The notes: generated from the letters alone by a model not told the origin. A DNA stretch of 64,000 bases from Candidatus Marinacidobacterales bacterium (GCA_965224085.1 CBDCYI010000011.1:544001-608000); one strand, 5' to 3'; counted from the stretch's first letter, positions 4,873 through 51,283 are shown. Program-made: numbers and translations.

Positions 4873-6309
4873 TCAGGGACTCTCTGTCAACGTGCTGATA
4901 ATAGGGCTAAGCGGCAGAGAATCCAGGTTTACCGGCTTGCCGTCCTTTATCACCATATTGATACTACGGTAGTTCTCTGCGTTTTCGAGTGGGTTGTTAT
5001 CAAGAATGACCAGATCGGCAATCTTGCCCTTCTCGAGTGTGCCGATATCGGCCTCTTTCTTGTAGGCCTTGGCAACGTTGCTGGTGGCCGACTTCAATAT
5101 CTCCATCGGCATCATGCCCATCTCCTGCAATGCTTTCAGTGCATTGAAATGGCCCTCTCCCAGCGATGTGCGCGGATCTACCTTGACAGCGCGCCTTCCT
5201 TCTGCCTCAGCGGCCAAAACAGGGTTTCTAATGCCGGCGTCGGTGGACATCAGCAAGACAACCCCCCCCTTGATCATGTTGCGGTGATTCACGTTCATGA
5301 TCTTTTGGAATTTGACAAAATAGTGATCCGGGTCCTTTTCAAGAAGCGCATCGAGACGCCGCTGTGTTATCGGCAAAATCGAACAGGGAATCTGGTGGTC
5401 GGCCATCTTCTTTATAGTCTCTTCCGGGATAGGTGTCGTCATTCCTGACACACCGCAGTGTGTCAAAATATCGATCCCGGCTTCAATGGCCATATCCAGG
5501 CTTTCCACTGATGAGGTATGGGTCTGTGCGGTGATTCCTGCTTTGTGGGCTTCCTCGATAATCACCTTCTGCACCCGCGGAGAGAAGGAAATAAAGCGCA
5601 TTTGGAGGCCGGCGTGACCACTGGCTCCATATTTCAGAAGATCTATATCCATCTTGACGTAATCGCGGATCTCCTTGCGGACCTCCTCCGGCCCCATAAA
5701 CAGCAGATCCTGGCCGGTATTCTCTTCCCATATGGCATTGATCCGCTTGGCAAAAGCCTTACTCACAAATTCGGCTGACTCCCCTCTGAAGTCCGAGGAC
5801 AGAGGACCGCCATAACCAACAATGTTGCCGGCCAAGTAGATGCGGCTGCCTGGAACCTCACCTTTGTTGATCATTTCACGGGCTTTGACTAGGGGTCCGC
5901 GAGGCCCCCAAGTGTCGAAAACCGTAGTTTGGCCCGTTTTGAGAGCAATTTGTGCGGCTTCGACAATAATTTCATCATAGCGTCCCTCATATTTGATGAG
6001 GGTTTCCAGGTCGCCGTTAAGATACAGGTGGAGATTGGCATCCATCAGGCCGGGTATCACGTATTTGCCTTGCGCATCGATTCTCCTCGCCGCGCTCGGC
6101 ATATCAACATCTGTGGATTTGCCAACCGCAGTGATCCGGCCGTCGGCAAAAAGAACAGTGCCGTTTTCAATGGGATCGCTGCCAGTACCGTCAATGATGG
6201 TAGCTCCGGTAATGGCAATGGTTTCCGCTTGCGCCAAAGAGGACCGGGCCAGAGCGATATGGATGAAAGTAAATCCCAAGAATACTGTTATGCGCTTGAA
6301 GCTTGACAT
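4873..6309 (-). CDS. Exported amidohydrolase, NxH variant, subfamily A (AH1)
   Basis: Signal peptide, GATIIDGTG, PGLMDANLH, KYGASGH, AQTH, LTH, STDAG, GKIADLVILDNNP. Visibly more AT-rich than neighbours. Confidence 0.93.
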   Translation of the reverse strand: MSSFKRITVFLGFTFIHIALARSSLAQAETIAITGATIIDGTGSDPIENGTVLFADGRITAVGKSTDVDMPSAARRIDAQGKYVIPGLMDANLHLYLNGDLETLIKYEGRYDEIIVEAAQIALKTGQTTVFDTWGPRGPLVKAREMINKGEVPGSRIYLAGNIVGYGGPLSSDFRGESAEFVSKAFAKRINAIWEENTGQDLLFMGPEEVRKEIRDYVKMDIDLLKYGASGHAGLQMRFISFSPRVQKVIIEEAHKAGITAQTHTSSVESLDMAIEAGIDILTHCGVSGMTTPIPEETIKKMADHQIPCSILPITQRRLDALLEKDPDHYFVKFQKIMNVNHRNMIKGGVVLLMSTDAGIRNPVLAAEAEGRRAVKVDPRTSLGEGHFNALKALQEMGMMPMEILKSATSNVAKAYKKEADIGTLEKGKIADLVILDNNPLENAENYRSINMVIKDGKPVNLDSLPLSPIISTLTESP

Positions 6310-6744
6310 TTCATCTCCCAGTAGTCAGTGTGATCGCGAAGTATAAATCAGACTTTCTCTGAAAGCCACACGCCTGCGGAACCCTGATAAATTGGTGATT
6401 GCGGCATCGCACGTGAAGATGGACAACCAGCCGAACGAAGACCTGAAGGACGGAGGCTTTCCTCCAATCCCGCTGGAACGGACGACGAAGAAGGGGCTTC
6501 GCACGAGGACATTTCCATGGCCGGTAGCGAGCCCGACAGCGCGGCCTCTTAATTGGCAGCTGCTCGATCCCTGGCGATCAGACCCACGGGCTATTTCCGC
6601 CGGCTTCAGCGGCTCGTTCGTTCAGTAGGGCCACGGAGCTTCCGGGTCGAAGCGCTGGACACGAATCGTGGGAAGGGCCTCGCGGTCGCTGACCCGCGTC
6701 TGAGTAACCCCGTTCACGGGTTTCACCGTTCATATTAATTTCAT

Positions 6745-6813
6745 ATGAATAATGATGAACCACAACCTACCTGGTCGAACGACGGACGCTGGATCTATTT
6801 TGGCTCCGCCCGA
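6745..6813 (+). pseudogene. Isolated PD40/TolB-like repeat remnant
   Basis: PQPTWSNDGRWIYFGSAR is one propeller-blade motif with no continuation. Confidence 0.4.
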
Positions 6814-6845
6814 TTCCTTCAACGTTGGTCAGGCCCGGAAAGATA

Positions 6846-7133
6846 TCAGCGCCGGGGCCGAAACATCGTGGCAGGTTCTGCCCATTGCGGTACCTCCTGC
6901 GCTCGGACCGCCCGTAGATTCTCGAGAGAGCGTTCGAGAGCCTCTCTGACCTCGGAGATCTGTTCCTCGTCGAACTTCTGGTCAGTAAAGGCGAGGAAAG
7001 CCTTCACGGACTCCTCCGAAAGCGCCCCCTCTTGCTCTACCTCCGCGCACATCGCGTTCAGGAGAGCGGTTCCTGCCACGCCAGCACCGCTGACGATCTT
7101 GGTGAACTGCCTTCGGCTGATCAGTTCGGTCAT
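6846..7133 (-). CDS. Small Tat-signal protein downstream of the amidase (GatC/AtzG-like accessory subunit candidate)
   Basis: GGAGG RBS, MTELISRRQFTK twin-arginine motif with a hydrophobic stretch, C-terminal LRAVRAQEVPQWAEPATMFRP. Confidence 0.75.
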   Translation of the reverse strand: MTELISRRQFTKIVSGAGVAGTALLNAMCAEVEQEGALSEESVKAFLAFTDQKFDEEQISEVREALERSLENLRAVRAQEVPQWAEPATMFRPRR

Positions 7134-7163
7134 GAGCGTTCCTCCAAACGATTCGTTCAAGGA

Positions 7164-8579
7164 TTAGTTCAAGGACGGGTGCCGTTGGTGCCATTTGGTG
7201 GCCTGTTCGTAAGCATGCGCGAGCTGAAGGATTCCACCCTCGTCGAACACGGCACCGACAAACTGGATTCCCACGGGCAGCCCTGCTGTTGTGAAGCCAC
7301 AAGGAACGGAGATGGACGGGGCGCCCACGAGGTTCGAGAAAGGACTGATCCTGGGCCGCGGCCTACCGCTTGGATCCTCTGGGTCGCCGCCTCGCGTGCG
7401 ATAGATCGTTTCGGGGGTCTCCGGTGCATCCGCCTCCCATGCTGTTGCCATCCAACTGGGCGCCACGAGCGCAGCATACTGCTGGAACAGCTCGCTGGCG
7501 TAGCGCATCATCTCGCCGCGAATCCTCTGCATCTTCAGATAATCGGTTGCAGGGATCATACGCGCGGCAGCCCATCGGGCGACCCGGTCCTTTCTGAGCA
7601 ACTCGTTGACTTTCGGAGAGTCGATGAGCGGCTCCCAAAAGCTGGCACCTTCGATACTGCCCAAACGTGAAACCTCCCGATAAGGAAGATCTGCCAGCTC
7701 CACATCTTCGAGAATGAGGTCGAGGTTTTCGAGCATCTCCAAGGACGCATTGAGAATTCCCCTCATCTCTGGATCTTCTGGCATGTCGAACTCGTCGCGG
7801 AGCACTGCAATCTTCTTTCCTTCGACGGGCGCTTTCGGTCGAAACTCAAACGGAGCGTCCACTGCTGTCGGATCGAGAGCGTCGGCTCCCATCACGTGCC
7901 CCAGCACAGTGGCGCAGTCTTCGACGTACCGACACATTGGCCCGGGCTTGTCCAGCGTCCAGCTGGCCACCATTATCCCGTGTCGACTTATGCGCCCGTA
8001 AGTGGGGCGCAGTCCAACGATTCCATTGACACTGGCTGGGGAGATGATCGAGCCTCCGGTTTCCGTCCCCAGGGAGAAGGCAGCCATGCCCGCGGCTATC
8101 GCCGCGCCAGGCCCGGCCGAGGAGCCGCTGCTGGAACGGCTGGTATCCCAGGGGCACCGGGTCGTGCCGCCGAACCACTTTGCACCTCCGGCTAACTCAC
8201 CTGTGGAAAGCTTCGCTATGAGGACGGCCCCAGCATCGTGAAGTGTCCGCACCACGGTAGCGTCATAGTCGAAGACCTGGCCCCGAAAGGCGGGCGAGCC
8301 CCATTGGGTAGGTATGCCGTCGGTGGCAAACAGGTCCTTGACTCCCCACGGGATCCCGTGGAGCGGTCCTCTGTAGTCGCCCTTCATGATCTCCGCTTCG
8401 GCAGCGCGGGCCTGCTCCATGGCCAAGTCTTCGGTGAACGTAACAACCGCGAAGAGCTGTGGCTCGAGCTTCTTTGCCCGCTCGATATAGGCGCGGGTCA
8501 GCTCAACCGGAGAGATCTCCCGCGCACGAATCATCGCGCCCAATTCGCCGATCGACTTAAAAAGGATGTCCTCGTTCAT
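7164..8579 (-). CDS. Amidase-signature family enzyme (GatA-like), no signal peptide
   Basis: GPLHGIPWGVKD (Lys), SSGSSAG (cis-Ser), GTETGGSI (nucleophile), GLPVGIQFVG. GGAGAGG RBS before ATG 8579. Confidence 0.93.
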   Translation of the reverse strand: MNEDILFKSIGELGAMIRAREISPVELTRAYIERAKKLEPQLFAVVTFTEDLAMEQARAAEAEIMKGDYRGPLHGIPWGVKDLFATDGIPTQWGSPAFRGQVFDYDATVVRTLHDAGAVLIAKLSTGELAGGAKWFGGTTRCPWDTSRSSSGSSAGPGAAIAAGMAAFSLGTETGGSIISPASVNGIVGLRPTYGRISRHGIMVASWTLDKPGPMCRYVEDCATVLGHVMGADALDPTAVDAPFEFRPKAPVEGKKIAVLRDEFDMPEDPEMRGILNASLEMLENLDLILEDVELADLPYREVSRLGSIEGASFWEPLIDSPKVNELLRKDRVARWAAARMIPATDYLKMQRIRGEMMRYASELFQQYAALVAPSWMATAWEADAPETPETIYRTRGGDPEDPSGRPRPRISPFSNLVGAPSISVPCGFTTAGLPVGIQFVGAVFDEGGILQLAHAYEQATKWHQRHPSLN

Positions 8580-8650
8580 GAACCTCTCCGTTTCAGCGGA
8601 GACCATAGAGGCCTCGATGGCACTTCGCCCGTCCCGTTTGGCGCAGTTTC

Positions 8651-8680
8651 GCAATACCGCAGTAACGAAGTACTTGTCAA
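8651..8680 (-). promoter_or_regulatory. Putative sigma70 promoter of the amidase operon
   Basis: TTGACA (8680-8675), 18-nt spacer, TATTGC (8656-8651). Confidence 0.4.
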
Positions 8681-8696
8681 ATGCGACCCTGTTCAG

Positions 8697-8840
8697 TTAG
8701 TCGGAAATGGCCGGCGCACCCGTGGCGGTAATCACCGTCCCGCCAACGATTGCAGTGAAATTTGCCTGTTCCTGTGCTTGGTTCCCACTCGGCGTGACAA
8801 GAGCGCCCAGGAAGCAAGTTGCTGCTATACGTCGGTTCAT
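8697..8840 (-). pseudogene. 5' stub of an exported amidohydrolase
   Basis: GGAGG RBS, then MNRRIAATCFLGALV...FTAIVGGTVITATGAPAISD*, which matches the TAIVGATVIDG start of the paralogs. Confidence 0.7.
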
Positions 8841-8996
8841 CTCATGTCCTCCTCTGTCCAAATTCGATTTGGGGTAGGGATTGCATCCGCGCTCGATTTG
8901 CGATAAGACCTTGCGAGTGTCCTGCACGTCCGTGACCCCAACCAGGCGACTAGCGGTGGACTCTGCTAAGCGCCTTTTTGCTTTGGAGAGAATGTC

Positions 8997-10529
8997 ATGA
9001 ATGGCAAAGGAGCCCGGTACCGTTTTCTTAACATGTTCCTGGTGCTGCTTCTCGGCGTCGCATTCCAGGCGCAGGCCGAGCAAGCATCCGACCAGGCCAC
9101 GGCGATCGTCGGAGCTACCGTAATAGATGGCAACGGCGGACCGCCCATGGCGGACGCGACCGTCGTCGTGGTCGGCAAACGCATCACCGCCGTCGGCCCG
9201 CGGGCCTCGGTCGACGTCCCGGCGGGCGCCAGAACCATCGACGGCGCAGGAAAGTTCGTCACCCCCGGCTTCGTGGATACCAACGTGCATATCTCCCTCT
9301 ATGGAGGTGGGCGCAAAGAACGGAAGGAAACTTCGGTCTACTACAGAGAGGCCAGTGCCGATCTGACGCTGGAAAGCGCCCAGATGCAGTTGAAATATGG
9401 GATCACCACCTTGCGCGACAGCTACGGGGCATTACTTCCACTGATAGAGGTCCGGGACGCCATTGCTCGCGGGGATGAGATCGGTCCCCGCATGCTGGTG
9501 GCCGGGAATATCGTCGGTTGGGGCGGCCCCTATTCGATTACCTTTGCCCTGATTCGCGAAAATAACTTGTCGCTTTATGAGGAGCAATTCACTGACTTCA
9601 TCGCTCAAGGGTCGGGCGAAGAGCTCATGGACATGTATCCGGAGGAGCTCCGTCGAGCAATCAACAAATACCTCGACAAGGGTCCAGACTTCATCAAGTA
9701 TGGTGGGACCAGCCATTGGGCCATTCCGACACTCATCGGGTTTTCGCCCGCTGCTCAACAGGTGATCGTGGAGGAAACGCACAAGCGAGGGTTGGTGGCC
9801 GAGACCCACGCAACCAACCCGGAAGGACTCCGACTATCGATAGAGGCAGGAATCGATCTCATTCAGCATCCTGAGGTCCTCGCAAATCGGGAGCTTTCCG
9901 ACGACCTTGTCCGTGAGATCCGTGAGCGGAAGATCATCTGCTCGATGCTGGTCAACTCTTTTACCGGCGCGGCGTGGAAGAAACATCTGAAGGAGAAGGA
10001 CGCGGCGAAGAAGAGACTGGCCGAGGCTGAGGAGGAGGCGGCGCAGGAGGGGCTGAAGAGATCTATCAAGAGGAAAAAGACGTCCGCCGAGCGACGCCGC
10101 GAGCAGCGTGAGCTCGGGCTTGGCACCGAGATGCGCCGCCGTAACGCCACGAAGTTGATCGAGGGCGGCTGCATCGTGACCCTCGGTACCGATAATTTCG
10201 CAGGCTCAGCGCCTGAGTTCGCTCGGACACCGAAGCGCATATCGTCGGAGCCGGGCATCGGAACCATCATCGCCATCGAGGGTTTGGTCGAGCTTGGCAT
10301 GACCCCCTCCGAGGCGATCGTTGCAGCGACGAAGAACGGCGCTATGGCCTGCAAGGCTCTCGATGAGTTCGGCACCGTGGAGGCGGGCAAGATCGCCGAC
10401 CTGCTGGTCCTGGATGCCGATCCCCTTGCCAGCATCTCCAACATCCGCAAGCTCGGCACTTTGATGCGGGAAGGCCAGATCATCGACCGCCACAAGCTGC
10501 CAACGAAACCGATTTTCTACAAGCGCTAG
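8997..10529 (+). CDS. Exported amidohydrolase, NxH variant, subfamily C (AH3)
   Basis: Signal peptide, PGFVDTNVH, FIKYGGTSH, AETH, IQHP, GTDN, GKIADLLVLDADP. Confidence 0.93.
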   Translation: MNGKGARYRFLNMFLVLLLGVAFQAQAEQASDQATAIVGATVIDGNGGPPMADATVVVVGKRITAVGPRASVDVPAGARTIDGAGKFVTPGFVDTNVHISLYGGGRKERKETSVYYREASADLTLESAQMQLKYGITTLRDSYGALLPLIEVRDAIARGDEIGPRMLVAGNIVGWGGPYSITFALIRENNLSLYEEQFTDFIAQGSGEELMDMYPEELRRAINKYLDKGPDFIKYGGTSHWAIPTLIGFSPAAQQVIVEETHKRGLVAETHATNPEGLRLSIEAGIDLIQHPEVLANRELSDDLVREIRERKIICSMLVNSFTGAAWKKHLKEKDAAKKRLAEAEEEAAQEGLKRSIKRKKTSAERRREQRELGLGTEMRRRNATKLIEGGCIVTLGTDNFAGSAPEFARTPKRISSEPGIGTIIAIEGLVELGMTPSEAIVAATKNGAMACKALDEFGTVEAGKIADLLVLDADPLASISNIRKLGTLMREGQIIDRHKLPTKPIFYKR

Positions 10530-10583
10530 GCGAATCTGGATCGTCGATCCTGGCTTTTTGTCCAGGGAAAACAGGAGGAATCA

Positions 10584-12041
10584 GTGATAGTGATGAGGAG
10601 TAGAGTCTCTCTTTTCGTGCTCTTCCTTTGTTGTTTTCTTGTGCCGAATCCCATTGTCTCGGCGCAAGACACCCTTGCCATCGTCGGCGCCACGCTCATC
10701 GATGGCACCGGTGCTGAGCCGGTCCCTGATAGCGCCCTCCTCATCGAGGGCAGCCGAATCGTTGCAGTCGGGCCCCGCTCCGAGGTGACGATCCCGGCGG
10801 CCACTCGCGTCGTGGACGCCGCCGGCCAGTACATCACCCCGGGCCTGATCGACGTCAACATCCACCTGATTCTTTTCATCGTCCCGGAGTTTTACGTCAA
10901 GTACGAGGAGCAGCTGGAGGAGATCATCATCCAGTCGGCCCAGATCGCCCTCAAGTACGGGGTCACCACGGTGCGGGACTCCTGGGGTCCAATAGAGCCG
11001 CTGCTGCGGGCCAGGGATCGGGTCAACCGGGGCGAGCGGGTGGGAGCCCGCATGCTGGTGGCGGGCAACATCGTCGGTCTGGGGGGACCGTTCAGCGAAT
11101 ACTTCCTGGGCGAGCGGGGGGCGGCGATCTCGCCCCTGGTGCAGGAGCGGATCAACGCCATCTGGGAGGAGAACGTCGGTCCCGAGCTGGCGGGGATGCG
11201 TCCTGAGGAGGTGCGTCAGGAGATGCGCACGTACCTGGCCCGGGGGGTGGATTTCGTGAAGGTGGCGATCTCGGCCCACGGGGTCCGTGGGGAGCCGCTG
11301 ATGTTCTCTCCCGAGGTGCTGAAGGTGATCGCCGATGAGGTGCACGCCGCGGGAAAGATCTACGAGACCCACACCGCCACCCCCGAGAGCCTGAGGCTGG
11401 CGGTGGAGTCCGGTGTCGACCTCCTCCAGCACCCGGAGGTCCTGGGTGACCAGGTGATCTCGGACGAGCTGATCGAGCTGATCAAGGAGAAGAACATCTT
11501 CTGCGGGATTCTGACCCGGTTCAGCTTCCCGGAGAGAGCCGAAGAAGAGCGCTCGAAATACCCGGAATGGTACGCGAGCACCAGCTTCTACAGGCGGGAT
11601 CAGTTCGAGGCGCGGGTGAAGAATGTTCGCAAGATGATCGCCGCCGGGGTCCGGCTGGCCATGGCCACCGACATGGGCCCTCAGTCCTGGGATCTGGCCT
11701 ACCGACCCATGTCGCCGATGCTCGGGACGATGCAGTTCGAGACGATGGAAGATTACCAGACTGCAGGGGCAAGCCCGATGGACATCCTGGTTGCCTCGAC
11801 AAAGACTGGAGCCGAGGCGTCCCAGATGGAGGAGGATCTCGGCACGCTTGCGGTCGGCAAGATCGCCGACCTGCTGGTGGTGAATGCCAACCCGCTGGAG
11901 GACATCTCCAACATGCGAAAGATCGATGAAGTCATGAAAGACGGAAAATTCATCGATCGCGACGCGCTGCCCGAGAAGGAAATCATGAAGTTCGACCCCG
12001 CGATGAAGTTCGGCGATTACCTGAAAAAAACCAAGAGATGA
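10584..12041 (+). CDS. Exported amidohydrolase, NxH variant, subfamily B (AH4)
   Basis: Signal peptide, PGLIDVNIH, VKVAISAHG, YETH, LQHP, ATDMG. Confidence 0.93.
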   Translation: MIVMRSRVSLFVLFLCCFLVPNPIVSAQDTLAIVGATLIDGTGAEPVPDSALLIEGSRIVAVGPRSEVTIPAATRVVDAAGQYITPGLIDVNIHLILFIVPEFYVKYEEQLEEIIIQSAQIALKYGVTTVRDSWGPIEPLLRARDRVNRGERVGARMLVAGNIVGLGGPFSEYFLGERGAAISPLVQERINAIWEENVGPELAGMRPEEVRQEMRTYLARGVDFVKVAISAHGVRGEPLMFSPEVLKVIADEVHAAGKIYETHTATPESLRLAVESGVDLLQHPEVLGDQVISDELIELIKEKNIFCGILTRFSFPERAEEERSKYPEWYASTSFYRRDQFEARVKNVRKMIAAGVRLAMATDMGPQSWDLAYRPMSPMLGTMQFETMEDYQTAGASPMDILVASTKTGAEASQMEEDLGTLAVGKIADLLVVNANPLEDISNMRKIDEVMKDGKFIDRDALPEKEIMKFDPAMKFGDYLKKTKR

Positions 12042-12064: not shown

Positions 12065-13007
12065 ATGATCGTACAGGGTTTGCGCAACCGTAGCCTAACT
12101 ATCTCTCCCGCCATCCTGCTTGCGGTGCTGCTGATTCTTGTCGCGTCCTCCGCCAACGCGGCTCAGGTGATCGCGGTCGTGGGGGCCACCGTGATCGATG
12201 GGAACGGCGGGCCACCCATGGCAGAGGCCACCGTCGTCGTGGTGGACAAACGCATTTCCGCCGTCGGCCCGCGGGCTTTGGTGGAAGTTCCTGCAGGCGC
12301 CAGAATCATCGATGGTACCGGGAAGTTCGTCACCCCAGGATTCGTGGACACCAACGTCCACATTTCCCTCTACGGGGGAGGGAGGAAGGAGCGCAAGGAA
12401 ACTTCGATCAAGTACCGCGGCCGTGCGGCAGAACTGACGCTGGAAAGCGCCCAGATGCATCTGAAGTACGGGGTAACCACTGTGCGCGACAGTTACGGGG
12501 CCCTCATTCCGTTGATGGAGGTTCGGGACGCCATCGCTCGGGGGGATGAGATCGGTCGAGCGCCGTCGAGAGCTCACGGCCCTTGGAAGAGGCGGGCTCG
12601 GCCTCGAAATGCGCCGCCGCAACGCCGAGAAGCTGATCGAGGGCGGCTGTATCACGACCCTGGGTACCGACAACTCCGCAGGCTCAGCGCCCGAGTTCGC
12701 CCGGCGCCCGAAGTCCATATCGCAGGAGCCGGGGGTCGGAACCATCATTGCGATTGAGGGGTTGGTCGAGCTCGGAATGACCCCATCCGAGGCGATCGTT
12801 TCCGCCACGAAGAACGGCGCTACGGCATGCAAGGCCCTCGATGAGTTCGGCACCGTGGAGGCAGGCAAAATCGCCGACCTTCTGGTCTTGGATGCCGACC
12901 CGCTGGCCGACATCTCGAACATCCGCAGGCTCGGAGTTGTCATGCGGGAGGGGCAAATCATTGATCACGACACGCTGCCGACAAATCCTATCTTCTACAA
13001 ACGCTAA
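12065..13007 (+). pseudogene. Subfamily C amidohydrolase (AH5) with a ~600-nt internal deletion and frameshift at ~12556
   Basis: The N-half (DTNVH...GDEIG) is joined out of frame to ERRRE...GTDN...IFYKR. The segment equivalent to ~9487-10087 of AH3 is absent. Confidence 0.85.
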
Positions 13008-13055: not shown

Positions 13056-14591
13056 ATGATCGTACAGGGTGTACGCAACCGTATCCTGACTTTCTCTCCC
13101 GCCATCCTGCTTGGTGTGCTGCTGATTCTTATCGCGTCCTCCGCAAACGCGGGTCAGGCGGAGCAGGTAATCGCGATCGCCGGGGCCACTGTGATCGATG
13201 GGAACGGCGGGCCCCCCGTCGCGGACCGGACGATCCTGGTGAGGGGCAATCGCATCGCAGAGATGGGCCCTCGGGATTCGATACAGGTCCCGGCGGGTGC
13301 CCGGGTCATCGACGGCAACGGCAAGTTCGTGACACCCGGGTTCATCGACACCAACGTCCACATGTCCCTGGCCTTCGGCCGTCGATGGAACGACAGCAAC
13401 GCCCGCTACTGGGACCGGCACTCCGACCTGGTCCTCGAGGGGGTACAGCTCCACCTGAAGCATGGGGTCACCACGATTCGGGACAGCTACGGCGCCCTGC
13501 TTCCCATGATCGAGGTGCGTGATGCGATCGCCCGGGGCGACGAGGTGGGCCCCCGCATGTACGTGGCCGGCAACATCGTGGGCTGGGGAGGCCCCTACTC
13601 CGAGACCTTCTCCCGCCTCTCCGAATCGGAGCTCACTCTCTTCGAGGAGCAGATCAACGACGCCATCACGCAGGGAAGCGGAGAAGAGTGGACTCACATG
13701 GCGCCGGACGAGCTCCGGGTGGCGATCAACGACTACCTCGACAAGGATCCAGACTTCATCAAGTACGGCGGTACATCTCACTCTCTCTATCCGGGCCTGA
13801 TTGGGTTCTCCCCGCGGGCACAGAAAGTTATTGTGGAGGAGACACAAAAGCGGGGCCTGGTGGCAGAAACGCACTCCACGACCCTGGAAGGGCTTCGACT
13901 TTCCGTTCTCGCCGGCCTCGATCTGATTCAGCATCCCGAAGCGGTCGGGCGCAGGGAGATCACCGACGAGCTCATCAACCTCATCGTGGAGCGGCAGGTC
14001 ATCTGCTCGATCATCTCGAATGCGTACAGCGGGGAGGCATGGAAGTGGCACCGAAAGCAGAGGGAGAAGGCGTTGCAAGAGCAGGCGGAGGCGAGTCAAG
14101 AACCCGAGCGCCGGGCGCCGAAGACGTCGGCCGAGATCCGGCGTGAAAAGGAGGCGGCGGGGATCGGGATGGAGCTACGCCGGCGAAACGCAGAGAAACT
14201 CATCAGCGCCGGGTGCATTGTCACGGTGGGCACCGACAACCTTCTGTTCGGCTACCGTGGAGTCGCGCCCGAATTCCTTCGGGAGAAACACGCGATATCT
14301 GAACATCAGGAACCCGGGATTGGGACCATCCTTGGAATCGAGGGGCTGGTCGAGCTCGGCATGACGCCCTCGGAGGCGATTGTGGCCGCAACGAAGAATG
14401 GGGCCCTTGCCTGCAAGGCCCTGGATGAGTTCGGCACGGTGGAGAAAGGCAAGATCGCCGACCTTCTTTTGCTGGATGCCAATCCTCTGGCCGACATCTC
14501 GAACATCCGCAAGCTCGGGGTCGTCATGCGGGGGGGGCAAATCATTGATCGTGACAAACTGGCGACGAAATCCGTCTTACACAAGCGATAG
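13056..14591 (+). CDS. Exported amidohydrolase, NxH variant, subfamily C (AH6)
   Basis: DTNVH, KYGGTSH, AETH, IQHP, GTDN; signal peptide. Confidence 0.93.
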   Translation: MIVQGVRNRILTFSPAILLGVLLILIASSANAGQAEQVIAIAGATVIDGNGGPPVADRTILVRGNRIAEMGPRDSIQVPAGARVIDGNGKFVTPGFIDTNVHMSLAFGRRWNDSNARYWDRHSDLVLEGVQLHLKHGVTTIRDSYGALLPMIEVRDAIARGDEVGPRMYVAGNIVGWGGPYSETFSRLSESELTLFEEQINDAITQGSGEEWTHMAPDELRVAINDYLDKDPDFIKYGGTSHSLYPGLIGFSPRAQKVIVEETQKRGLVAETHSTTLEGLRLSVLAGLDLIQHPEAVGRREITDELINLIVERQVICSIISNAYSGEAWKWHRKQREKALQEQAEASQEPERRAPKTSAEIRREKEAAGIGMELRRRNAEKLISAGCIVTVGTDNLLFGYRGVAPEFLREKHAISEHQEPGIGTILGIEGLVELGMTPSEAIVAATKNGALACKALDEFGTVEKGKIADLLLLDANPLADISNIRKLGVVMRGGQIIDRDKLATKSVLHKR

Positions 14592-15135: not shown

Positions 15136-15188
15136 CTCGTAAAACTCTGATGCTGCACGCGGTCGCGATTCCGGCCTGGGGGAGAACG

Positions 15189-17435: not shown

Positions 17436-17448
17436 CGGTCGAGCCCCG

Positions 17449-18888: not shown

Positions 18889-18925
18889 GCGTCGAGATTG
18901 AGATGGACGCGAGCGGTTGCCTCAT
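18889..18925 (-). pseudogene. 37-nt stub of the 5' end of an AH11-type gene
   Basis: ATGAGGCAACCGCTCGCGTCCATCTCAATCTCGACGC versus the AH11 start ATGAGGCAAGCGATCGCGTCCATCTCAATCTCGACGC. ATGA-coupled to the AH7 stop. Confidence 0.75.
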
Positions 18926-20379: not shown

Positions 20380-20478
20380 CGTTCCTCCAAGAGCCTGTGA
20401 CGTGAGGGAGTGAGCCATTTCTCTTCCTCGGTGACTTGCCTTCTGCCGTTGCCGAGGGCGATAGTACTGTCCCGAAGC

Positions 20479-22836: not shown

Positions 22837-22871
22837 CTCAGCACTCTCTCATGCTTCGAAAAGCAACCTCC

Positions 22872-22900
22872 GCTATACTCCCCCCAACAAGCGTTGTCAA
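22872..22900 (-). promoter_or_regulatory. Sigma70 promoter of the DPP IV gene
   Basis: TTGACA (22900-22895), 17-nt spacer, TATAGC (22877-22872). Confidence 0.6.
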
Positions 22901-22933
22901 CAGAGGCTGCCGCTTAGTGTCTCTTCCGGGGAT

Positions 22934-23457
22934 GGTCGAAACCCCTCGCCTTTAGGCGAAGAGAAGATCGTGGTATTGTGGTCGCGTGCGTCACTACAGG
23001 CACGGAGCGCACACGAAAACGGACCTAAAAGCGCACATCGTTTGGATACCGAAATATCGTAAAAAGGTTTTGATCGGTCCAGTAGCGGTTCGTGTGCGCG
23101 ATCTGATTCGTCAGATCGCGATGGAACATGAGCTGCACATAATCTCGGGTAAGGTTGCACGCGACCACGTCCACGTGTTCGTATCCTACCGACCACACCA
23201 GGACCTGAGTACGATCGTGCAGTGGCTAAAAGGAATAAGCTCCCGAGTACTCCTTCAGGAGTTTGCTCACCTGAGGAAGAAGTTTTGGGGCCGGCACTTC
23301 TGGGCCCGAGGATATCTGGCGGTGAGTTCAGGAAGCATAACGGACGAGATGGTAAAGGAGTACATAGACTCCCAGGATGGCGAGCCTCTTCACGACGACA
23401 GTCAATTTCCAATTGACAGCCCTTGAAGCCACCGCCTTCTAGGCGGTGGTTGTTCAC
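22934..23457 (+). mobile_element. Complete IS200-type element (tnpA only, no tnpB)
   Basis: Left hairpin TCGCCT-TT-AGGCGA (22946-22959), right hairpin CCACCGCCT-TCT-AGGCGGTGG (23429-23449), ends in TTCAC. Left boundary approximate. Confidence 0.85.
22986..23426 (+). CDS. tnpA: IS200/IS605 HUH (Y1) transposase
   Basis: HIVWIPKYRKKVL, DHVHVF (HUH), LKGISSR, FWARGY, VKEYI (Tyr). Confidence 0.95.
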   Translation: MRHYRHGAHTKTDLKAHIVWIPKYRKKVLIGPVAVRVRDLIRQIAMEHELHIISGKVARDHVHVFVSYRPHQDLSTIVQWLKGISSRVLLQEFAHLRKKFWGRHFWARGYLAVSSGSITDEMVKEYIDSQDGEPLHDDSQFPIDSP

Positions 23458-23503
23458 TTGAATCGGGGAACTACGGATCGAGGAACTACGTTAGGAGGAT
23501 GCC

Positions 23504-38449: not shown

Positions 38450-38645
38450 TTTGATCACACTAGCGATTGGCAGAGGCTTCTTTCCTCTCCACCGAAGGAC
38501 AGGAAAAATCATAACATCATTCCAGGCGATCGACAGGAAATGTAGTCAGGAAGTCGCAATCGGCCGTATATTAGCGCCGTATGCTGGAGCGTGATGCCTT
38601 ATTCGGCAACAATGGACAGAACACAGGAATGATCAAGAAAGGACG

Positions 38646-41600: not shown

Positions 41601-41825
41601 GCCATCGGGCACGGGGCGCACGTCGGCTCCCTGGAGCCGGGAAAGCTCGCGGACCTTCAGGTATTGGACGCGAATCCCTTGGAGGACATCCGCAAAACCA
41701 ACACGATTCGCTACGTGATGAAGAACGGCCGGCTCTACGAGGCAGACACGCTCAACGAGATCTGGCCCCGGGAGAGGGAGCTGCCGGAGCAGTGGTGGTG
41801 GAGAATCGATCCGAAGGAGGAGTGA
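38646..41825 (+). CDS. TolB/PD40 beta-propeller-amidohydrolase fusion, exported
   Basis: TDEGTWISLDISPDG, many SPDG blades, PGYVDIHAH, VKQY, GLEH, LGSHG, GKLADL. Confidence 0.92.
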   Translation: MPMPGKTSYFVVALLACAAVASSGVAQQADSEEPLPLQPTRTIRFTTDEGTWISLDISPDGSTIVFDLLGDLYVLPIAGGTATRITSGMAFDAQPRYSPDGQTIVFVSDRSGSHNVWLADADGQNPRPVTREVDIQFVSPEWTPDGRGIVVSKGKGVTEVMYGLHQYLLGGGTGVALAGGKGNEPYDNYVGAAFGPDPSYLYTAVATGGWSTIWQVATFDRESGHTDVLTNELRSAMRPAISPDGKYLLFATRHDAVTALKLRELGTGDERWLAQEVQFDLQDSRPTRDVMPGMSFTPDGRALVASYDGKIWRIEVPSGTAMPIPFTADVEQQLGPLVKFDYPFDDSRLTLRRIQDPRPSPDGQRLAFSALDRLWVMELPGGAPRRLTNRETGEFKPAWSPDGRYIAYVTWNDTDGGDVYRARADGSVAPERLTRESAYYKGVTYTPEGSRLMLLRAPRRARTLQVGPSRLQLAWMSADGGDLTEIHRPGQYGSPHFTSEGDRVHVYDRAEGLISMRWDGTDVKSILEVTGSITPSRPEVEPPAQEILLSPRGDRALALVGNDLYLVTLPMPGSAVTLSIVNPSEAPLPVRRLTNITAEFPGWSPDGGTVHYSLGRTFFIHDVATAENPETTVVTITVPRDRPSGTLVLRGARIVTMRGDEVLKNGDLVVTDNRITAVGARGQVDAPADARVIDVSGKTILPGYVDIHAHMRPAAEVHRPQPWMYLVNLAYGVTTSRDPSASPDVFSYADLVETGALLGPRIFSTGPSLSENVPLESLDDARNILRPFAEYLGTETVKQYTIGSRRARQWFNIAARESGLTPTVETYADFQKNLTEVIDGYAGLEHKLHIFPMAQDVIQLLVQAGVTNTPTFFVSNTTVGAGEWFYSIEGFDLHDDPKFRRFTPHPVLDRNLLQHRVMQWQPPYEYVYQRQAAELRKLVEAGGRVALGSHGDLQGLGAHVELWAIASGGMRPHDVLRAGTIFGAEAIGHGAHVGSLEPGKLADLQVLDANPLEDIRKTNTIRYVMKNGRLYEADTLNEIWPRERELPEQWWWRIDPKEE

Positions 41826-41877: not shown

Positions 41878-43394
41878 ATGGAAGATAGATACGTACCTTT
41901 GGCGTTGTTACTTTGTTTCGTCCTGGCGGTTCCTCTTGTCTCGGCGCAAGACACGACCGCCATCGTAGGCGCGACTCTCATCGATGGTACCGGTCGTGAG
42001 CCAGTTACCGACGGCGCCATCGTCATCGAGGGCAGCCGGATCGCGGCGGTCGGGCCCCGCTCCCAGGTGATGATCCCGGCGGGAGCCCGGGTGGTGGACG
42101 CCAGCGGAAAGTTCATCACACCAGGCCTCATCGACGTCAATGTGCATCTGATCTTGACGATTATCCCCGATTTTTATGTCAAGTACGAGGATCGACTCGA
42201 GCAGATCGTGATTGAGTCGGCGCAGATCGCCCTCAAGTATGGTGTCACCACGGTGCGTGACTCCTGGGGTCCTCTCGAGCCACTGCTGCGAGCCCGGGAT
42301 CGGATCAATGCGGGTGAGAAGGTCGCAAGCCGCATGCTGGTGGCGGGAAACATCGTCGGCCTTGACGGTCCATTCAGTCAGTTCTTCCTGGGTGCGCGGG
42401 GCGCCGGAGTCTCCCCCCTTGTTCAGGAGAGGATCAACGCCACCTGGGAGGAAAACGTCGGCACTAACCTTCTCGCGATGCGTCCCGAGGAGGTGCGCCA
42501 GGAGATGCGCAAGTACCTAGCCCGTGGGGTCGATTTCGTGAAGGTAGCGATCTCAGCCCACGGCGTACGGGGGGAGCCGCTGATGTTCTCGCCCGAGGTG
42601 CTAAGGGTCATCGCCGAGGAAGTGCATGCGGCGGGAAAGATTTACGAGACCCACACCGCCACTGCCGAGAGCCTCAGGGTGGCCATAGAGTCGGGAGCCG
42701 ACCTCCTTCAGCATCCCGAGGTCTTGCGCGATGGCGAGGGTAATAACCTGGAGATTCCCGACGACCTGATCGCGCTGATCAAGGAAAAGAACATATTTTG
42801 CGGGATTATGACCAGGTTTAGCTACCCCGACATGCTCGAAGAGCAAGGCTCCAAATACCCCGAATGGTTCGCAAAGATGAGCCCGAGTCGGTATGAAAGG
42901 GAGGCTTTTGAGCCACGGGCCAATAATGCCCGAAAGCTCATCGCGGCTGGTGTCCGCGTCGCTTTGGCCACTGATATGGGACCGCAGGTCTGGGAACTGG
43001 CCTATCGACCGTTTTCACCGATGCTAGGGAGAATGCACTTCGAGACCATGGAGGATTACCAATCAGCGGGGCTGAGCCCGATGCAAGTTCTGGTTGCATC
43101 AACCAAGACCGGAGCCGAGGCGTCCCAGATGGAGGAGCATCTCGGTACGCTTGAAGTCGGCAAGATCGCATCCTGATTGTCTCATCCCGATGAGTCCGAT
43201 TCTGTCGGCGCGAGGACCCGCTGGAGGACATCTCCAACATGCGGAAGATCGATCAAGTGATCAAGGAAGGGAAGTTCATCGACCGTGACAAACTTCCGGA
43301 GACCTCGATCCTGCAGTTCGACCCTGAAGGGGAGTTCGGCGATTACATGAAGAAGAGGAAGAATTCGAGGGGCAACCAATCCAGAAGGAGGTAA
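41878..43394 (+). pseudogene. Subfamily B NxH amidohydrolase (AH13) interrupted near the 3' end by a templated 36-nt segment
   Basis: DVNVH, KVAISAH, YETH, LQHP, ATDMG. Stop at 43176; the C-terminus resumes out of frame at 43212 (EDPLEDISN...RRR*). Confidence 0.8.
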
Positions 43395-43403: not shown

Positions 43404-44943
43404 GTGATGAGATACAAATACTTGCTCAGCGCGCTCCTACTTTATTGTCTCATCCCGATGAGTCCGATTCTGTCGGCGCAAGACACTACCGCCATCGTCG
43501 GTGCGACGCTCATCGACGGCACCGGGCGTGAGCCGGTTCCCGACAGCGCCATCGTCATCGAGGGCACCCGCATCACCGCCGTCGGGCCCCGCTCCCAGGT
43601 GATGATCCCGGCGGGAGCCCGAGTTGTAGACGCTACGGGCAAGTACGTGACCCCCGGCCTCATCGACGTCAACGTGCACCTGATCCTGACGATTTTCCCC
43701 GACTTTTACGTCAAGTACGAGGACCAACTAGAGGAGATCATCATTGAGGGGGCGCAGATCGCCCTCAAGTACGGTGTCACTACGGTGCGGGACTCCTGGG
43801 GTCCCCTGGAGCCGCTGCTGCGAGCCCGGGATCGGATCAATGCGGGTGAGAAGGTTGGTAGCCGTCTGCTGGTGGCGGGAAACATCGTCGGCCTTGGAGG
43901 GCCTTTCAGTGAGTACTTCATATTCCGGCGAGATTCTGGTGAATCTGCTGGGATCGGCGCCTGGGTCTCACCGCTCGTTCAGGAGAGGATCAACGCCATC
44001 TGGGAGGAGAACGTCGGGCCGGGCCTTCTCACGATGCGTCCCGAGGAGGTGCGCCAGGAGATGCGCAAGTACCTGGCGCGGGGTGTGGACTTCGTGAAGG
44101 TAGCGGTTTCAGCCCACGGCGTGGTGGGGCAGCCGCTGATGTTCACGCCCGAGGTGCTGAAGGTGATCGCCGAGGAGGTGCACGCGGCCGGATCGAGTCG
44201 GGAGTCGACCTCCTTGCTCAGCGCGCTCCTACTTTATTGTCTCAAAGATCTACGAGACCCACACCGTTACCCCCGAGAGCCTCAGGCTAGCGATCGAGTC
44301 GGGAGTCGACCTCCTCCAGCACCCCGAGGTCCTGGAAAATCGAGAGATCCCCAACGACCTGGTCGCGCTGATCAAGGAGAAGAACATATTTTGTGGGATT
44401 TTAACCAGGTTCAGTAACCCGAAGAGGATCGTAGAAGAGCGATCGAAATACCCATACTGGTACCGAGGCATGGACCCGAGCTCGTACGAGCAATGGCACA
44501 AGAATGTCTACAAGCTGATCGCGGCTGGCGTCCGAGTGGCGATGGCCACCGATATGGGCCCACAGGCCTGGGAGTTAGCCTATCGAGGCACGTCGCCGAT
44601 CCTTGGGAGAATGCACTTCGAGACCATGGAAGACTACCAAACTGCAGGGATGAGCCCGATGCAAGTTCTGGTTGCATCAACCAAGACCGGAGCCGAGGCG
44701 TCCCAGATGGAAGAGGATCTCGGCATCCTCGAGGTGGGTAAGATCGCCGACCTGCTCGTTGTGAATGAGGACCCGCTGGAGGACATCTCCAACATGCGAA
44801 AGATCGATCAAGTGATGAAGGAAGGGAAGCTCATCGACCGCGACAAACTTCCTGAGACCTCGATCATGCAGTTTGATCCTGAAGGGGAATTCGGCGATTA
44901 CATGAAGAAGAGGTCAACGAGCAACAAACCCTTGAGGAGGTAA
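43404..44943 (+). pseudogene. Subfamily B NxH amidohydrolase (AH14) frameshifted by a 52-nt composite insertion (44192-44243)
   Basis: Removing 44192-44243 restores HAAGKIYETH and a continuous AH4/AH13-like frame. Confidence 0.82.
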
Positions 44944-49621: not shown

Positions 49622-49777
49622 GCAATTCGCGCTGCAGGAAGCGCTCCCGCTGGCCGTACCCGTTCACGAAGACGATCTCCGTCCCAGGCACCCTTGCCAA
49701 ACAGTTCGACAGGCCACAGAATACGCTGGGATCAAAGCCTCAGTAGAATCGGGGGCTCATATTTAGGAGGGAATGCC

Positions 49778-51283
49778 ATGATCCTCGAGAATTCAGGTAA
49801 CCGTCTGATTGTCATATCCGCCCTGGTTCTGGGTACGCTTTCGATTCCAACCTCACCCTCTGCCGGCGCGGTACAGGTCTCCGAGCAGGTGACGGCGATC
49901 GTAGGGGTTACCTTGATCGACGGAAACGGCGGGCCGCCCGTCCCGGACGCGACGATCCTGATCAGGGAGAACCGGATTGCAGAGATCGGCCCACGAGCTT
50001 CGGTCAAAGTCCCCCAGGGGGCCCGGGCGATCGACGGCAGCGGCAAGTACGCCACGCCGGGGTTCATTGACACGAATGTCCATGTGACCCCTCTAAGTGG
50101 CCAAACGACGTTCGCCCGCTACTGGGACCGGCTCGAGGACATCACCCTCCAGGGGGCGCAGCTTCAGCTGAAGTACGGGGTCACCACGATCCGGGACAGC
50201 TACGGCCCCCTGCCTCCCCAGATCAAGGTCCGGGACGCCATCGCCGGTGGCGAGGAGGTCGGTCCACGGATGTACGTTGCCGGCAACATCGTTGGCTGGG
50301 GAGGTCCTTACTCCGAGACCTTCTCCCGCACGAGCGAATCAGGGCTCACCCTCCTCGAAGAGCAGATGAACGACCTCTTCGCCCAGGGCACCGGGGAAGA
50401 GCTCCTGCACATGACGCCCAAAGAGCTCCGGGTGGCCATCAACGAGTACCTGGACAAGGGGGTGGACTTCATCAAGTACGGGGGGACCGCCCACTCTTCC
50501 TACCCCGCGCTCATCACTTTCTCTCCGCGCGCTCAGAGGGTGATCGTGGAGGAGACCCAGAAGCGTGGCCTGGTGGCGGAGACCCACTCCGCAACCGTGG
50601 AGGGGCTTCGGCTCTCTGTCCTGGCCGGGATCGACCTCATCCAGCATCCCCGAAGCCTCGGGCGGTCTAAGATGACAGACGAGCTGGTTGAGCTCATCGT
50701 GGAGCGGAGGGTCATTTGCTCCGGGCTGCAGAACACGATCACCGGGGAGGTATGGGAAGAACACGTCGAGAAGAGGGAGAAGGCGCTGAAAGAGCAGGAG
50801 GAGGCGGACCGAAAGAGGCGGCAATCGCCGAAGACCTCCGCTGAAGTCCGGCGTGAGCAGGAGGAGGCGGGGATCGTGCTGGAGGTGAAACGGCGGAACG
50901 CGAAGAGGCTCATCGAGGCCGGAGCCATCATCTCGGTTGGGACCGACAACACCGTATCGAGGGCCCCCGAATTCCGCCGGGAAAAGAAGAAGGAGCACCA
51001 GGAGCCGGGGATCGGGACCATCATCGCCATCGAAGGCCTCGTGGAGCTCGGCATGACGCCGTCGGATGCCATCGTGGCCGCAACGAAGAACGGGGCGCTT
51101 GCCTGCAAGGCCCTCGACGAGTTCGGAACGCTGGAGGAAGGCAAGCTGGCCGACATCCTCCTGTTGGGGGCGGACCCCCTGGCCGACATCTCCAATATCC
51201 GCAAGCTAGAGATGCTGATGAAGGAGGGCCAGATCATCGACCCGGAGAGCCTGCCCACCGTACGACCCTACGGGGAGTGGTAG
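49778..51283 (+). CDS. Exported amidohydrolase, NxH variant, subfamily C (AH15)
   Basis: AGGAGG RBS before ATG 49778, DTNVH, KYGGTAH, AETH, IQHP, GTDN. Confidence 0.93.
   Translation: MILENSGNRLIVISALVLGTLSIPTSPSAGAVQVSEQVTAIVGVTLIDGNGGPPVPDATILIRENRIAEIGPRASVKVPQGARAIDGSGKYATPGFIDTNVHVTPLSGQTTFARYWDRLEDITLQGAQLQLKYGVTTIRDSYGPLPPQIKVRDAIAGGEEVGPRMYVAGNIVGWGGPYSETFSRTSESGLTLLEEQMNDLFAQGTGEELLHMTPKELRVAINEYLDKGVDFIKYGGTAHSSYPALITFSPRAQRVIVEETQKRGLVAETHSATVEGLRLSVLAGIDLIQHPRSLGRSKMTDELVELIVERRVICSGLQNTITGEVWEEHVEKREKALKEQEEADRKRRQSPKTSAEVRREQEEAGIVLEVKRRNAKRLIEAGAIISVGTDNTVSRAPEFRREKKKEHQEPGIGTIIAIEGLVELGMTPSDAIVAATKNGALACKALDEFGTLEEGKLADILLLGADPLADISNIRKLEMLMKEGQIIDPESLPTVRPYGEW

Follow-up and report, generated by a model that had tools for sequence, protein, structure and literature searches.

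PuhA and PuhB are actinobacterial enzymes that reportedly act on diuron. Together with MolA of Gulosibacter molinativorax and PipM, the piperine amidohydrolase of Rhodococcus ruber, they belong to a subgroup that the PipM paper names amidohydrolase "subtype VIII", with Asn-X-His…Lys…His…His…Asp as its signature; the literature gives it one metal, at the beta site. According to the published reports, MolA, PuhB and PipM are homotetramers, the metal in the characterised members is Zn or Co, and PipM, which was assigned to subtype VIII and has the same motif, contains Zn and cleaves a natural tertiary amide. In the MolA structure, the Lys is uncarboxylated, the alpha site is empty with an Asn there, and a single metal occupies the beta site. 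The MolA gene is carried on a composite transposon of an actinobacterial plasmid.

The locus described here lies in a stretch of 64,000 nucleotides (the window) from a Candidatus Marinacidobacterales bacterium (GCA_965224085.1 CBDCYI010000011.1:544001-608000). A sequence-only reading had proposed that this DNA encodes an array of 13 exported amidohydrolases, ten intact and three disrupted, in which Asn replaces the first metal-binding His. All 13 reading frames were found between 4873 and 51283, each with D-x-N-x-H after strand beta-1, and copies 12065, 41878 and 43404 are broken in the present assembly. The motif reads DANLH (4873) or DANVH (18922) in subfamily A, DVNIH (10584) or DVNVH (41878 and 43404) in subfamily B, and DTNVH in all eight members of subfamily C (8997, 12065, 13056, 23504, 25081, 26627, 28298 and 49778). 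The copies and their neighbours are as follows, with orthologs taken from G012, a genome of another genus.

4869-59531, no strand: island in inverted collinearity with G012 contig C4 5112-121228, at 89-97% DNA identity
4873-6309, minus strand: subfamily A, intact, 478 aa, DANLH; 41% identical to MolA; G012 ortholog 94% (protein), dN/dS 0.23
8997-10529, plus strand: subfamily C, intact, 510 aa, DTNVH; copy used for the AlphaFold model
10593-12041, plus strand: subfamily B, intact, DVNIH; G012 ortholog 97%, dN/dS 0.15
12065-13007, plus strand: subfamily C, DTNVH, internal deletion of about 610 bp and frame change relative to the G012 ortholog (pieces 12065-12757 and 12546-13007)
13056-14591, plus strand: subfamily C, intact, DTNVH; G012 ortholog 92%, dN/dS 0.25
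15150-18840, plus strand: S9 peptidase (15150-17435) and M24 peptidase (17449-18840) by Pfam; NCBIfam matches all below cut-offs
18922-20379, minus strand: subfamily A, intact, DANVH, signal-peptide-like start at 20379; no other copy is closer to MolA (43% identity); G012 ortholog 97%, dN/dS 0.12
23504-25051, plus strand: subfamily C, intact, DTNVH, Glu for the His six residues after the Lys; best G012 match 74%
25081-26601, plus strand: subfamily C, intact, DTNVH; G012 ortholog 98%, dN/dS 0.15
26627-28174, minus strand: subfamily C, intact, DTNVH; G012 ortholog 97%, dN/dS 0.18
28298-29812, minus strand: subfamily C, intact, DTNVH; G012 ortholog 96%, dN/dS 0.12
32966-35923, plus strand: TonB-dependent receptor with a CarboxypepD_reg domain (Pfam); RNA-library contigs of about 3 kb in X15 and X16
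41878-43176, plus strand: subfamily B, DVNVH, early end at codon 433; G012 ortholog full-length
43407-44943, plus strand: subfamily B, DVNVH, split between two frames (43407-44417 and 44470-44943) by 52 surplus bases, 44192-44243
49778-51283, plus strand: subfamily C, intact, DTNVH; G012 ortholog 94%, dN/dS 0.28

An alignment of the ten intact copies showed the D, N and H of the motif to be invariant, and the beta-4 Lys, beta-5 His, beta-6 His and beta-8 Asp are likewise kept throughout, as the sequence-only reading had it. Pfam Amidohydro_1 matched all ten copies tested. By a simple heuristic (not SignalP), every one of the 13 copies has an N-terminal extension of 27-40 residues with Lys/Arg and a hydrophobic core, which agrees with the signal peptides predicted earlier for the whole array, and the same heuristic gives 80 of 103 evaluable homologs the look of exported proteins.

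MolA is the top match to the window proteins by sequence and by fold. A PDB sequence search with the subfamily B copy at 10593 returned full-length matches to MolA (E 6e-75) and PuhB (E 1e-67), both with N-x-H at the position aligned with the window motif, and the next match was Cc2672 at only 5.5e-27. With the AlphaFold model of copy 8997 (pLDDT 94.5), Foldseek ranks 1-3 were 4wgx and 4ub9 (both MolA) and 4whb (PuhB), with TM-scores of 0.87 by target length for 4wgx and 0.85 for 4whb. The Asn, His, Lys240, His246, His282, His302 and Asp373 of MolA correspond to identical residues in 10 of 11 aligned copies, and the sole exception is copy 23504, with Glu in place of His246. At the protein level the copies share 35-43% identity with MolA, and there are clear differences: MolA begins directly at the conserved core, with neither N-terminal extension nor signal peptide, its motif is NGNVH rather than D-x-N-x-H, and the window copies do not conserve its gate residues Arg187, Phe253 and Phe346. 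Subfamily C is further distinguished from MolA by a modelled extra helical insert of about 50 residues at the entrance (model residues 324-389). PuhA and PuhB share the subgroup and motif of the window copies.

Next closest in fold and sequence are the COG1228 carboxypeptidases/prolidases (Cc2672, 3mtw; Sgx9260, 3feq, 3n2c and 3mkv; and 2qs8) and the ochratoxinases. The COG1228 enzymes, which are binuclear with a carboxylated Lys, provide the best NCBIfam model for the window proteins but score much lower than MolA (E 5.5e-27 versus 6e-75). Assignment to the Caulobacter-type Xaa-Pro dipeptidases (NCBIfam NF051886; COG1228) was considered and rejected, as four of four proteins scored 141.9-149.9 bits against a cut-off of 500 and all 13 copies have N-x-H rather than H-x-H. 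PipM, which serves a catabolic pathway for a plant alkaloid, is likened to the window proteins through its published description.

The phylogenies place MolA among the window proteins. With FastTree, 103 N-x-H rows out of 131 formed a single clade (support 98), and with IQ-TREE, MolA and both subfamily A copies fell within a 13-row group (support 99); both trees were built by fast methods from sets in which MolA, a long branch in each, was the one representative of the four characterised enzymes. Since PuhA, PuhB, MolA and PipM have been characterised with this motif, two of them by crystal structures, and MolA nests with subfamily A, the clade already contains characterised enzymes. The sequence-only reading knew of no characterised N-x-H family and had regarded the array as the window's best candidate for an undescribed system. 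Neither view holds: MolA sits in the same well-supported subclade as subfamily A, the subgroup is named in the literature, and the Asn-for-His motif is not new because it already defines the PuhB, MolA and PipM-type subgroup. The best overall explanation, which we hold with high confidence, is that the 13 genes are members of the described subtype VIII with a predicted MolA-like mechanism, and that they are diverged, selected paralogs on an island that most likely moved recently.

The whole 6.87-Mb genome has 98 amidohydrolase-like ORFs, comprising 19 with N-x-H (one of them a doubtful 28.7-bit match), 48 with H-x-H, 27 without an aligned residue at the motif and 4 others. The 32 top-scoring ORFs consist of 18 with N-x-H interleaved with 10 H-x-H ORFs and 4 fragments that lack the motif residue. 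Because 18 N-x-H ORFs rank among the 32 best-scoring in the genome, the sequence ranking indicates that the motif passes down with its clade, and a chance pattern is rejected. Homologs conserve the Asn, which marks the clade as the earlier reading had anticipated: 117 of the 120 best homologs have it, as do 99 of the 119 top-scoring representative clusters with coverage of the site and 102 of 132 ORFs from the fetched loci. In the fetched loci, the paralog profile gave at least 269 bits for the 102 N-x-H ORFs and at most 240 bits for 25 H-x-H ORFs, and the N-x-H rows that cover the ligand positions read KHHHD or a near variant. At E 1e-30 or better, the representative library yielded 3200 proteins, and the sequence clusters with this active site number several hundred at the least. 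These relatives occur mainly in Gemmatimonadota and Acidobacteriota, and the majority look exported by the heuristic. Two genomes had 19 and 30 matches and the other searched genomes 0 to 3, and the phylum-wide search scored five candidates per genome, so that its figures bound presence and not copy number. A limited literature search found no report on exported or expanded subtype VIII members.

Nine of ten G000-G012 ortholog pairs had dS of 0.06-0.17 and dN/dS of 0.12-0.28; copy 23504 had no close ortholog in G012, where its best match was only 74% identical. Within subfamily C, paralogs are 60-78% identical with dS of about 0.8-1.2. Judged from these comparisons, the paralogs are old and maintained by purifying selection. 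As for the broken copies, 12065 covers only positions 3-154 and 346-497 of the profile. The stop in copy 41878 falls in 36 bp (43176-43211) that are an exact copy of 43444-43479, and the 52 extra bases that shift the frame of copy 43404 include 32 that exactly repeat 43421-43452. Short duplicates of one 60-bp segment disrupt two of the three broken copies, and these breaks may be assembly artefacts. Contigs without the 52 bases of copy 43404 were present in three of four other public runs (X2, X4 and X15), so either the population may carry it unbroken or its break may have arisen in assembly.

The island runs beyond the window to C11:610921. Lateral movement of the island between genera is suggested by sequence comparison, because DNA identity to another genus is 89-97% across the island and only 78% in rpoB (92-95% in rpoB for same-genus genomes), a comparison based on one core gene and on database genus labels. 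Most likely the exchange was recent and involved two genera that belong to one Acidobacteriota family. The island contains, at 22913-23459, a 547-bp repeat that has about 40 copies in this genome and no terminal inverted repeats. An alternative explanation is that the similarity to G012 reflects a chimeric metagenome assembly and not lateral transfer. The island is flanked by repeats and insertion sequences, where assemblers can mis-join, two of the gene breaks resemble mis-joins, and relatives of both genomes may share samples. We nevertheless consider a chimera unlikely given that the island lies within a 1.7-Mb contig with genus-native sequence at its left (2145-4693, 89-94% identical to G001), that the genome-specific 547-bp repeat at 22913-23459 returned no G012 match, that further broken N-x-H copies occur on contigs C4, C5 and C9 of the genome, and that contigs from two other studies reproduce 12.7 kb of the island with zero differences.

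RNA-library contigs from one study overlap parts of five N-x-H genes, including copies 25081 (26300-26586), 26627 (27119-27681 and 27787-28405) and 28298 (28289-29052, 29042-29510 and 29542-30053). These contigs differ from the window by 2-4% and therefore come from a related strain. Cover was missing from three bins (37007-39007) in X15 and from the first two of these in X16 as well; uncovered stretches are not proof of silence, and RNA-library contigs can include DNA. Runs X17-X20, which share few of the searched sequence words, include records labelled sponge and marine metagenome. An Rfam search of the window returned no match. The PALP gene encodes a threonine synthase rather than a catabolic enzyme. 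No conserved operon partner emerged from 52 other homolog loci, where the most frequent family accounts for at most 3 of the 96 flanking genes. A proline-specific peptidase theme was also set aside, since the S9 and M24 matches were all under the NCBIfam cut-offs, with Dpp5 as the nearest model.

By homology to MolA, we infer a catalytic mechanism for the array. Each intact copy would be exported by the Sec route, measure about 470 residues and fold as a (beta/alpha)8 barrel, in which the His-to-Asn change would remove the alpha metal site. A single divalent metal would be held at the beta site by the beta-5 and beta-6 His, and water molecules would be held by the uncarboxylated beta-4 Lys, the His six residues on and the beta-8 Asp. 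Metal-bound hydroxide would then attack the carbonyl of an amide, urea or (thio)carbamate. The remodelled or mononuclear site put forward in the sequence-only reading agrees with the structure of the solved homolog MolA. The sequence taken by itself would also be compatible with an Asn that still binds a second metal. A site that is still binuclear, in which the Asn would be a weak ligand of the alpha metal and the Lys would be carboxylated, would fit the invariance of the Lys and of the second His of the beta-1 motif, and the carboxylation state of a Lys is invisible in sequence. Such a site is quite improbable, however, in view of the uncarboxylated Lys and empty alpha site of MolA, and in view of the water-holding His, which is kept in all aligned copies but 23504 (Glu) and is absent from 24 of the 25 H-x-H rows of the fetched loci and present in one.

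What might the MolA-like enzymes of the array hydrolyse? Positions equivalent to MolA Arg187 and Phe253 differ among the window copies, and the variation of entrance residues between paralogs is what the substrate panel envisaged earlier would require. Because the entrance loops differ and subfamily C has the entrance insert, the paralogs probably take different substrates. One possibility, to which we give rather less than even weight, is that the substrates are small peptide-derived or N-substituted (tertiary) amides freed in the periplasm by the neighbouring peptidases. More tentatively still, the exported subtype VIII proteins might constitute a natural periplasmic hydrolase class for tertiary or N-substituted amides, with the array as a laterally mobile 'substrate panel' island; the candidate bonds may then be those of Xaa-Pro-like peptides and N-alkyl amides, which are refractory to ordinary peptidases. 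That the paralogs are xenobiotic hydrolases cleaving phenylurea or thiocarbamate herbicides, like the characterised relatives, is favoured by homology to PuhB and MolA and is nonetheless very improbable: identity to MolA is low, the gate residues are not kept, the window proteins look exported, and an uncultured bacterium with 13 old paralogs that purifying selection maintains fits poorly with recent adaptation to herbicides. Moreover, PipM, which is closer to PuhB and MolA (64-65% similarity), is reported to be inactive on diuron and molinate.

Non-catalytic periplasmic binding proteins (pseudoenzymes) are scarcely credible, for although some distant clusters in the family have no ligand left, five of 119 site-covering representatives (P0169, P0178, P0187, P0222 and P0236), the metal and water ligands of MolA are all invariant in the intact copies, bar the one position in 23504. 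Equally hard to credit is an undescribed amidohydrolase family defined by N-x-H without a characterised member, which would accord with the NCBIfam search, where no family exceeded its cut-off and the Xaa-Pro dipeptidase model came best with 142-150 bits, and with the generic names in public annotations ('amidohydrolase family protein', 'imidazolonepropionase-like') and in the ESM Atlas, but not with the N-x-H of the top PDB matches, the published subgroup or the nesting of MolA with subfamily A.

As the biochemistry of the motif is already settled, the subtype VIII array opens no new enzyme class. Its unusual features are its size, the export of its products and its apparent lateral transfer, and further aspects that may be new are a subgroup that is mostly exported and uncharacterised, with its centre in Gemmatimonadota and Acidobacteriota, the high match counts in two genomes, and the age and purifying selection of the paralogs. 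Current knowledge of subtype VIII is narrow, covering four cytoplasmic actinobacterial enzymes with herbicide or plant-alkaloid substrates, and at least ten diverged, selected paralogs make a handy starting set for the discovery of natural substrates. The array could also reveal how entrance loops set specificity, which would be useful for bioremediation enzymes. The near-identical island in another genus is a clear example of an entire paralog array that was apparently transferred as a single block. If the exported enzymes do act on tertiary and N-substituted amides, the island would supply its host with ready-made specificities for scavenging organic nitrogen.

Thirteen paralogous amidohydrolase genes lie between positions 4873 and 51283 of the window, as the sequence-only reading had reported, and all 13 encode D-x-N-x-H after strand beta-1. 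The genes, named by their start positions, fall into three subfamilies:

4873 and 18922: subfamily A, 2 copies, DANLH/DANVH
10584, 41878 and 43404: subfamily B, 3 copies, DVNIH/DVNVH
8997, 12065, 13056, 23504, 25081, 26627, 28298 and 49778: subfamily C, 8 copies, DTNVH

The 10 copies searched against Pfam all match Amidohydro_1. When the 10 intact copies are aligned, the Asp, Asn and His of the motif are invariant, as are Lys in beta-4, His in beta-5 and in beta-6 and Asp in beta-8; the His six positions beyond the Lys is nearly invariant. By a simple heuristic, every copy has an N-terminal extension of 27-40 residues with Lys/Arg and a hydrophobic core, and 12 of the 13 have a small-x-small site within it. 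The signal peptides earlier read in all copies are thus borne out, in the sense that all 13 N-termini are signal-like.

The proposal that these proteins form an undescribed family does not stand, since the motif and the site that it implies are already known as amidohydrolase subtype VIII. A PDB sequence search with a B copy returned full-length matches to the molinate hydrolase MolA (E 6e-75; 4ub9, 4wgx) and to PuhB, phenylurea hydrolase B (E 1e-67; 4whb), both with N-x-H at the aligned position, and the next match, Cc2672, reached only 5.5e-27. According to the MolA structure paper, Asn replaces one alpha-site His, the Lys is uncarboxylated, a single metal is bound at the beta site by His282 and His302, and Lys240, His246 and Asp373 hold three waters; Ala substitutions of Lys240, His282 or His302 are inactive. 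The PipM paper groups PuhA, PuhB, MolA and PipM as subtype VIII, with the motif Asn-X-His-X-Lys-X-His-X-His-X-Asp, and describes these enzymes as Zn- or Co-dependent homotetramers. When residues were mapped with the molA sequence from plasmid pARLON1, the seven mapped positions were identical in 10 of the 11 aligned window copies, and protein identity to MolA was 41-43% for A, 39% for B and 35-37% for C. The exception is C_23504 (23504-25051), which has Glu at the His246 equivalent, a position that is His in MolA and all other copies. A model of C_8997 built from 127 input sequences (pLDDT 94.5, pTM 0.92) has 4wgx, 4ub9 and 4whb as its closest folds (TM 0.85-0.87, normalised to target length), ahead of Cc2672, Xaa-Pro dipeptidases and ochratoxinases. 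This N-x-H group is not represented by a model in NCBIfam; the best match there, a Caulobacter Xaa-Pro dipeptidase, scores 142-150 bits, below its cut-off of 500.

The Asn is kept across homologs. Of 8000 candidates scored in a word-indexed protein search, 1050 reached E 1e-20 or better, and tabulating the motif in the best 120, a check proposed with the sequence-only reading, gave 117 with N-x-H, one with S-x-H and two without the region. An exhaustive search of 50%-identity representatives gave 3200 at E 1e-30 or better; the site is covered in 119 of the best 150, with N-x-H in 99, Asn without the second His in 3, H-x-H in 6 and other residues in 11. Five of these 11 are ligand-free (P0169, P0178, P0187, P0222 and P0236): they match the paralog profile at E 1e-81 or better with the Asn/His, Lys, both His and Asp gone, and may be pseudoenzymes. 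Among 132 open reading frames from fetched loci, 102 have N-x-H, 25 have H-x-H and 5 lack the region; all N-x-H rows score at least 269 bits and all H-x-H rows at most 240, and the His after the Lys accompanies N-x-H and occurs in just 1 of the 25 H-x-H rows. Named homolog records come mainly from Gemmatimonadota and Acidobacteriota, with some from Actinomycetota (Jiangella) and Pseudomonadota. A heuristic export call on 103 evaluable homologs found 80 exported-looking, 16 unclear and 7 without an N-terminal extension.

In a FastTree phylogeny of 131 rows, all 103 N-x-H rows form one clade (support 98), within which MolA and both A copies fall in a 24-row group (99). A quick IQ-TREE search of 47 rows recovered a 33-row core (98) that divides into B (100), a 13-row group of MolA and both A copies (99), and C (100); in reading both trees, it should be kept in mind that MolA is a long branch and that PuhA, PuhB and PipM were left out.

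The N-x-H pattern in the array is not chance. The paralog profile matches 98 open reading frames in the whole genome (6.87 Mb, 12 contigs), comprising 48 H-x-H, 19 N-x-H, 27 with no residue aligned at the site and 4 other. One of the 19 is a doubtful match at 28.7 bits; the 18 clear ones all lie within the top 32 scores, intermixed with 10 H-x-H frames and 4 fragments whose sequence does not extend over the motif. Members outside the array and the H-x-H fusions within the window are as follows:

C11:618338-619798: N-x-H gene
C9:52260-55605: two N-x-H genes
C5 and C11: broken N-x-H pieces
C4 and C9: pieces of the N-x-H clade not carrying the motif
window 38646-41825 and 54159-57416: TolB-propeller-amidohydrolase fusions, H-x-H

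The two fusions are about 1060-1085 residues long, with PD40/TolB-like propellers and a C-terminal amidohydrolase domain (DIHAH, DMHDH), and at least five more occur elsewhere in the genome. A second amidohydrolase cluster, of about eight paralogs, lies on C9 at about 415940-438755 and has H-x-H rather than N-x-H.

How did such an array come to be here? Window positions 4869-59531 are collinear, in inverted orientation, with positions 5112-121228 of contig C4 of G012, a genome from another genus of the family, at 89-97% DNA identity, and the match runs past the window as far as C11:610921, at which point the G012 contig stops. In rpoB, a 3.2-kb stretch shares 95, 92 and 92% identity with three genomes of the window's genus versus only 78% with G012, and those three lack this island except for small pieces. 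RpoB protein matches named records from Acidobacteriota at 82% and Vicinamibacterales at 69-72% identity. The best reading of these comparisons is that the island reflects a recent lateral exchange. The main alternative is that the similarity to G012 arose from a chimeric assembly. Against a chimera, the left flank of the island is native to the window's genus, a genome-specific 547-bp repeat for which no G012 match was returned lies within the island, broken N-x-H copies also occur on other contigs, and contigs from other studies are identical to the island over up to 12.7 kb with zero differences.

Several further elements lie in and around the island:

488-1489, minus strand: IS1595-family transposase gene immediately left of the island, with many copies of about 73% identity in the same-genus genomes G002 and G003
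20354-22902: S9 peptidase gene with DPPIV_N, whose DNA identity is 99% to G002 and 96% to G012 (rpoB 95% and 78%)
22913-23459: the 547-bp repeat, with a partial inverted copy at 1-170
C11:611154-614746 (positions 8154-11746 of locus L101): stretch of 3.6 kb directly past the island, 99% identical to G003 (rpoB 92%)

The S9 peptidase gene seems, from these identities, to move independently, and the 99% stretch would be another sign of recent exchange in the region. The repeat occurs in about 40 copies, 98-100% identical, on C4, C5, C9 and C11, with several in G002; it has no convincing open reading frame, terminal inverted repeats or Rfam match.

Matches at E 1e-60 or better are present in 13 of 31 related genomes, with 19 in the window genome, 30 in G012 and 0-3 in each of the others. 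In a phylum sample with five candidates scored per genome, 5 of 301 genomes, the window genome included, match at E 1e-100 or better. Nine of the 10 intact window copies have G012 partners at 92-98% protein identity (dS 0.06-0.17, dN/dS 0.12-0.28). The tenth, C_23504, adjoins the 547-bp repeat and is alone among the intact copies in having no close ortholog in G012, its best match there being 74% identical. Because the C paralogs are 60-78% identical among themselves with dS of about 1, and dN/dS between orthologs is low, the duplications are old and each copy has been under purifying selection.

Three copies are broken:

12065 (C): about 610 bp missing
41878 (B): a stop where 36 bp, 43176-43211, are an exact copy of 43444-43479
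43404 (B): a frameshift by 52 extra bases, 44192-44243, 32 of which are an exact copy of 43421-43452

Both B breaks are made up of exact copies from a single segment, 43421-43479, the signal-peptide coding region of the second B gene. Template switching or gene conversion could account for them, as could an artefact of assembly. Contigs from three of the four public sequencing runs compared (X2, X4 and X15) lack the 52 bases, although in the two DNA runs the shorter arm across the joint measures just 23 letters; both B breaks are therefore uncertain. The contigs suggest that at least 43404 is intact in part of the population.

The window is rich in genes for extracytoplasmic hydrolases and uptake, including five S9 peptidases, one M24 peptidase, one amidase, a TonB-dependent receptor, a dicarboxylate/amino-acid symporter, BNR/sortilin proteins and the two TolB fusions; its PALP gene encodes threonine synthase. 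Every match of the window peptidases to named NCBIfam models fell under the cut-off. At 52 other loci, no family recurred in more than 3 of 96 genes flanking homologs, and peptidases S15, S9, M1 and M28 headed the list. Immediately downstream of the amidase is a small open reading frame:

7164-8654, minus strand: amidase
6846-7160, minus strand: 104-residue frame without a Pfam match, whose N-terminus is twin-arginine-like (SRRQF followed by hydrophobic residues)

This frame may encode a small exported protein that partners the amidase. In one study, RNA-library contigs contain parts of five N-x-H genes and the entire receptor gene, which hints that the array is transcribed; bins without RNA cover are 37007-38340 in both RNA runs (X15 and X16) and 38341-39007 in X15.

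Window paralogs differ from one another at the sites that correspond to Arg187 and Phe253, gate residues of MolA, and in C the loop bearing Phe346 is predicted by the model to be replaced by a specific insert with helices at 324-350, 363-372 and 375-389. Peptide-derived or tertiary amides are our best guess for the substrates, a tentative one that we would sooner expect to be wrong than right. By homology to MolA, we infer that the paralogs are exported mononuclear amidohydrolases with diversified specificity. The window genes are new, uncharacterised, exported members of subtype VIII, gathered in an array that is unusually large and apparently mobile.
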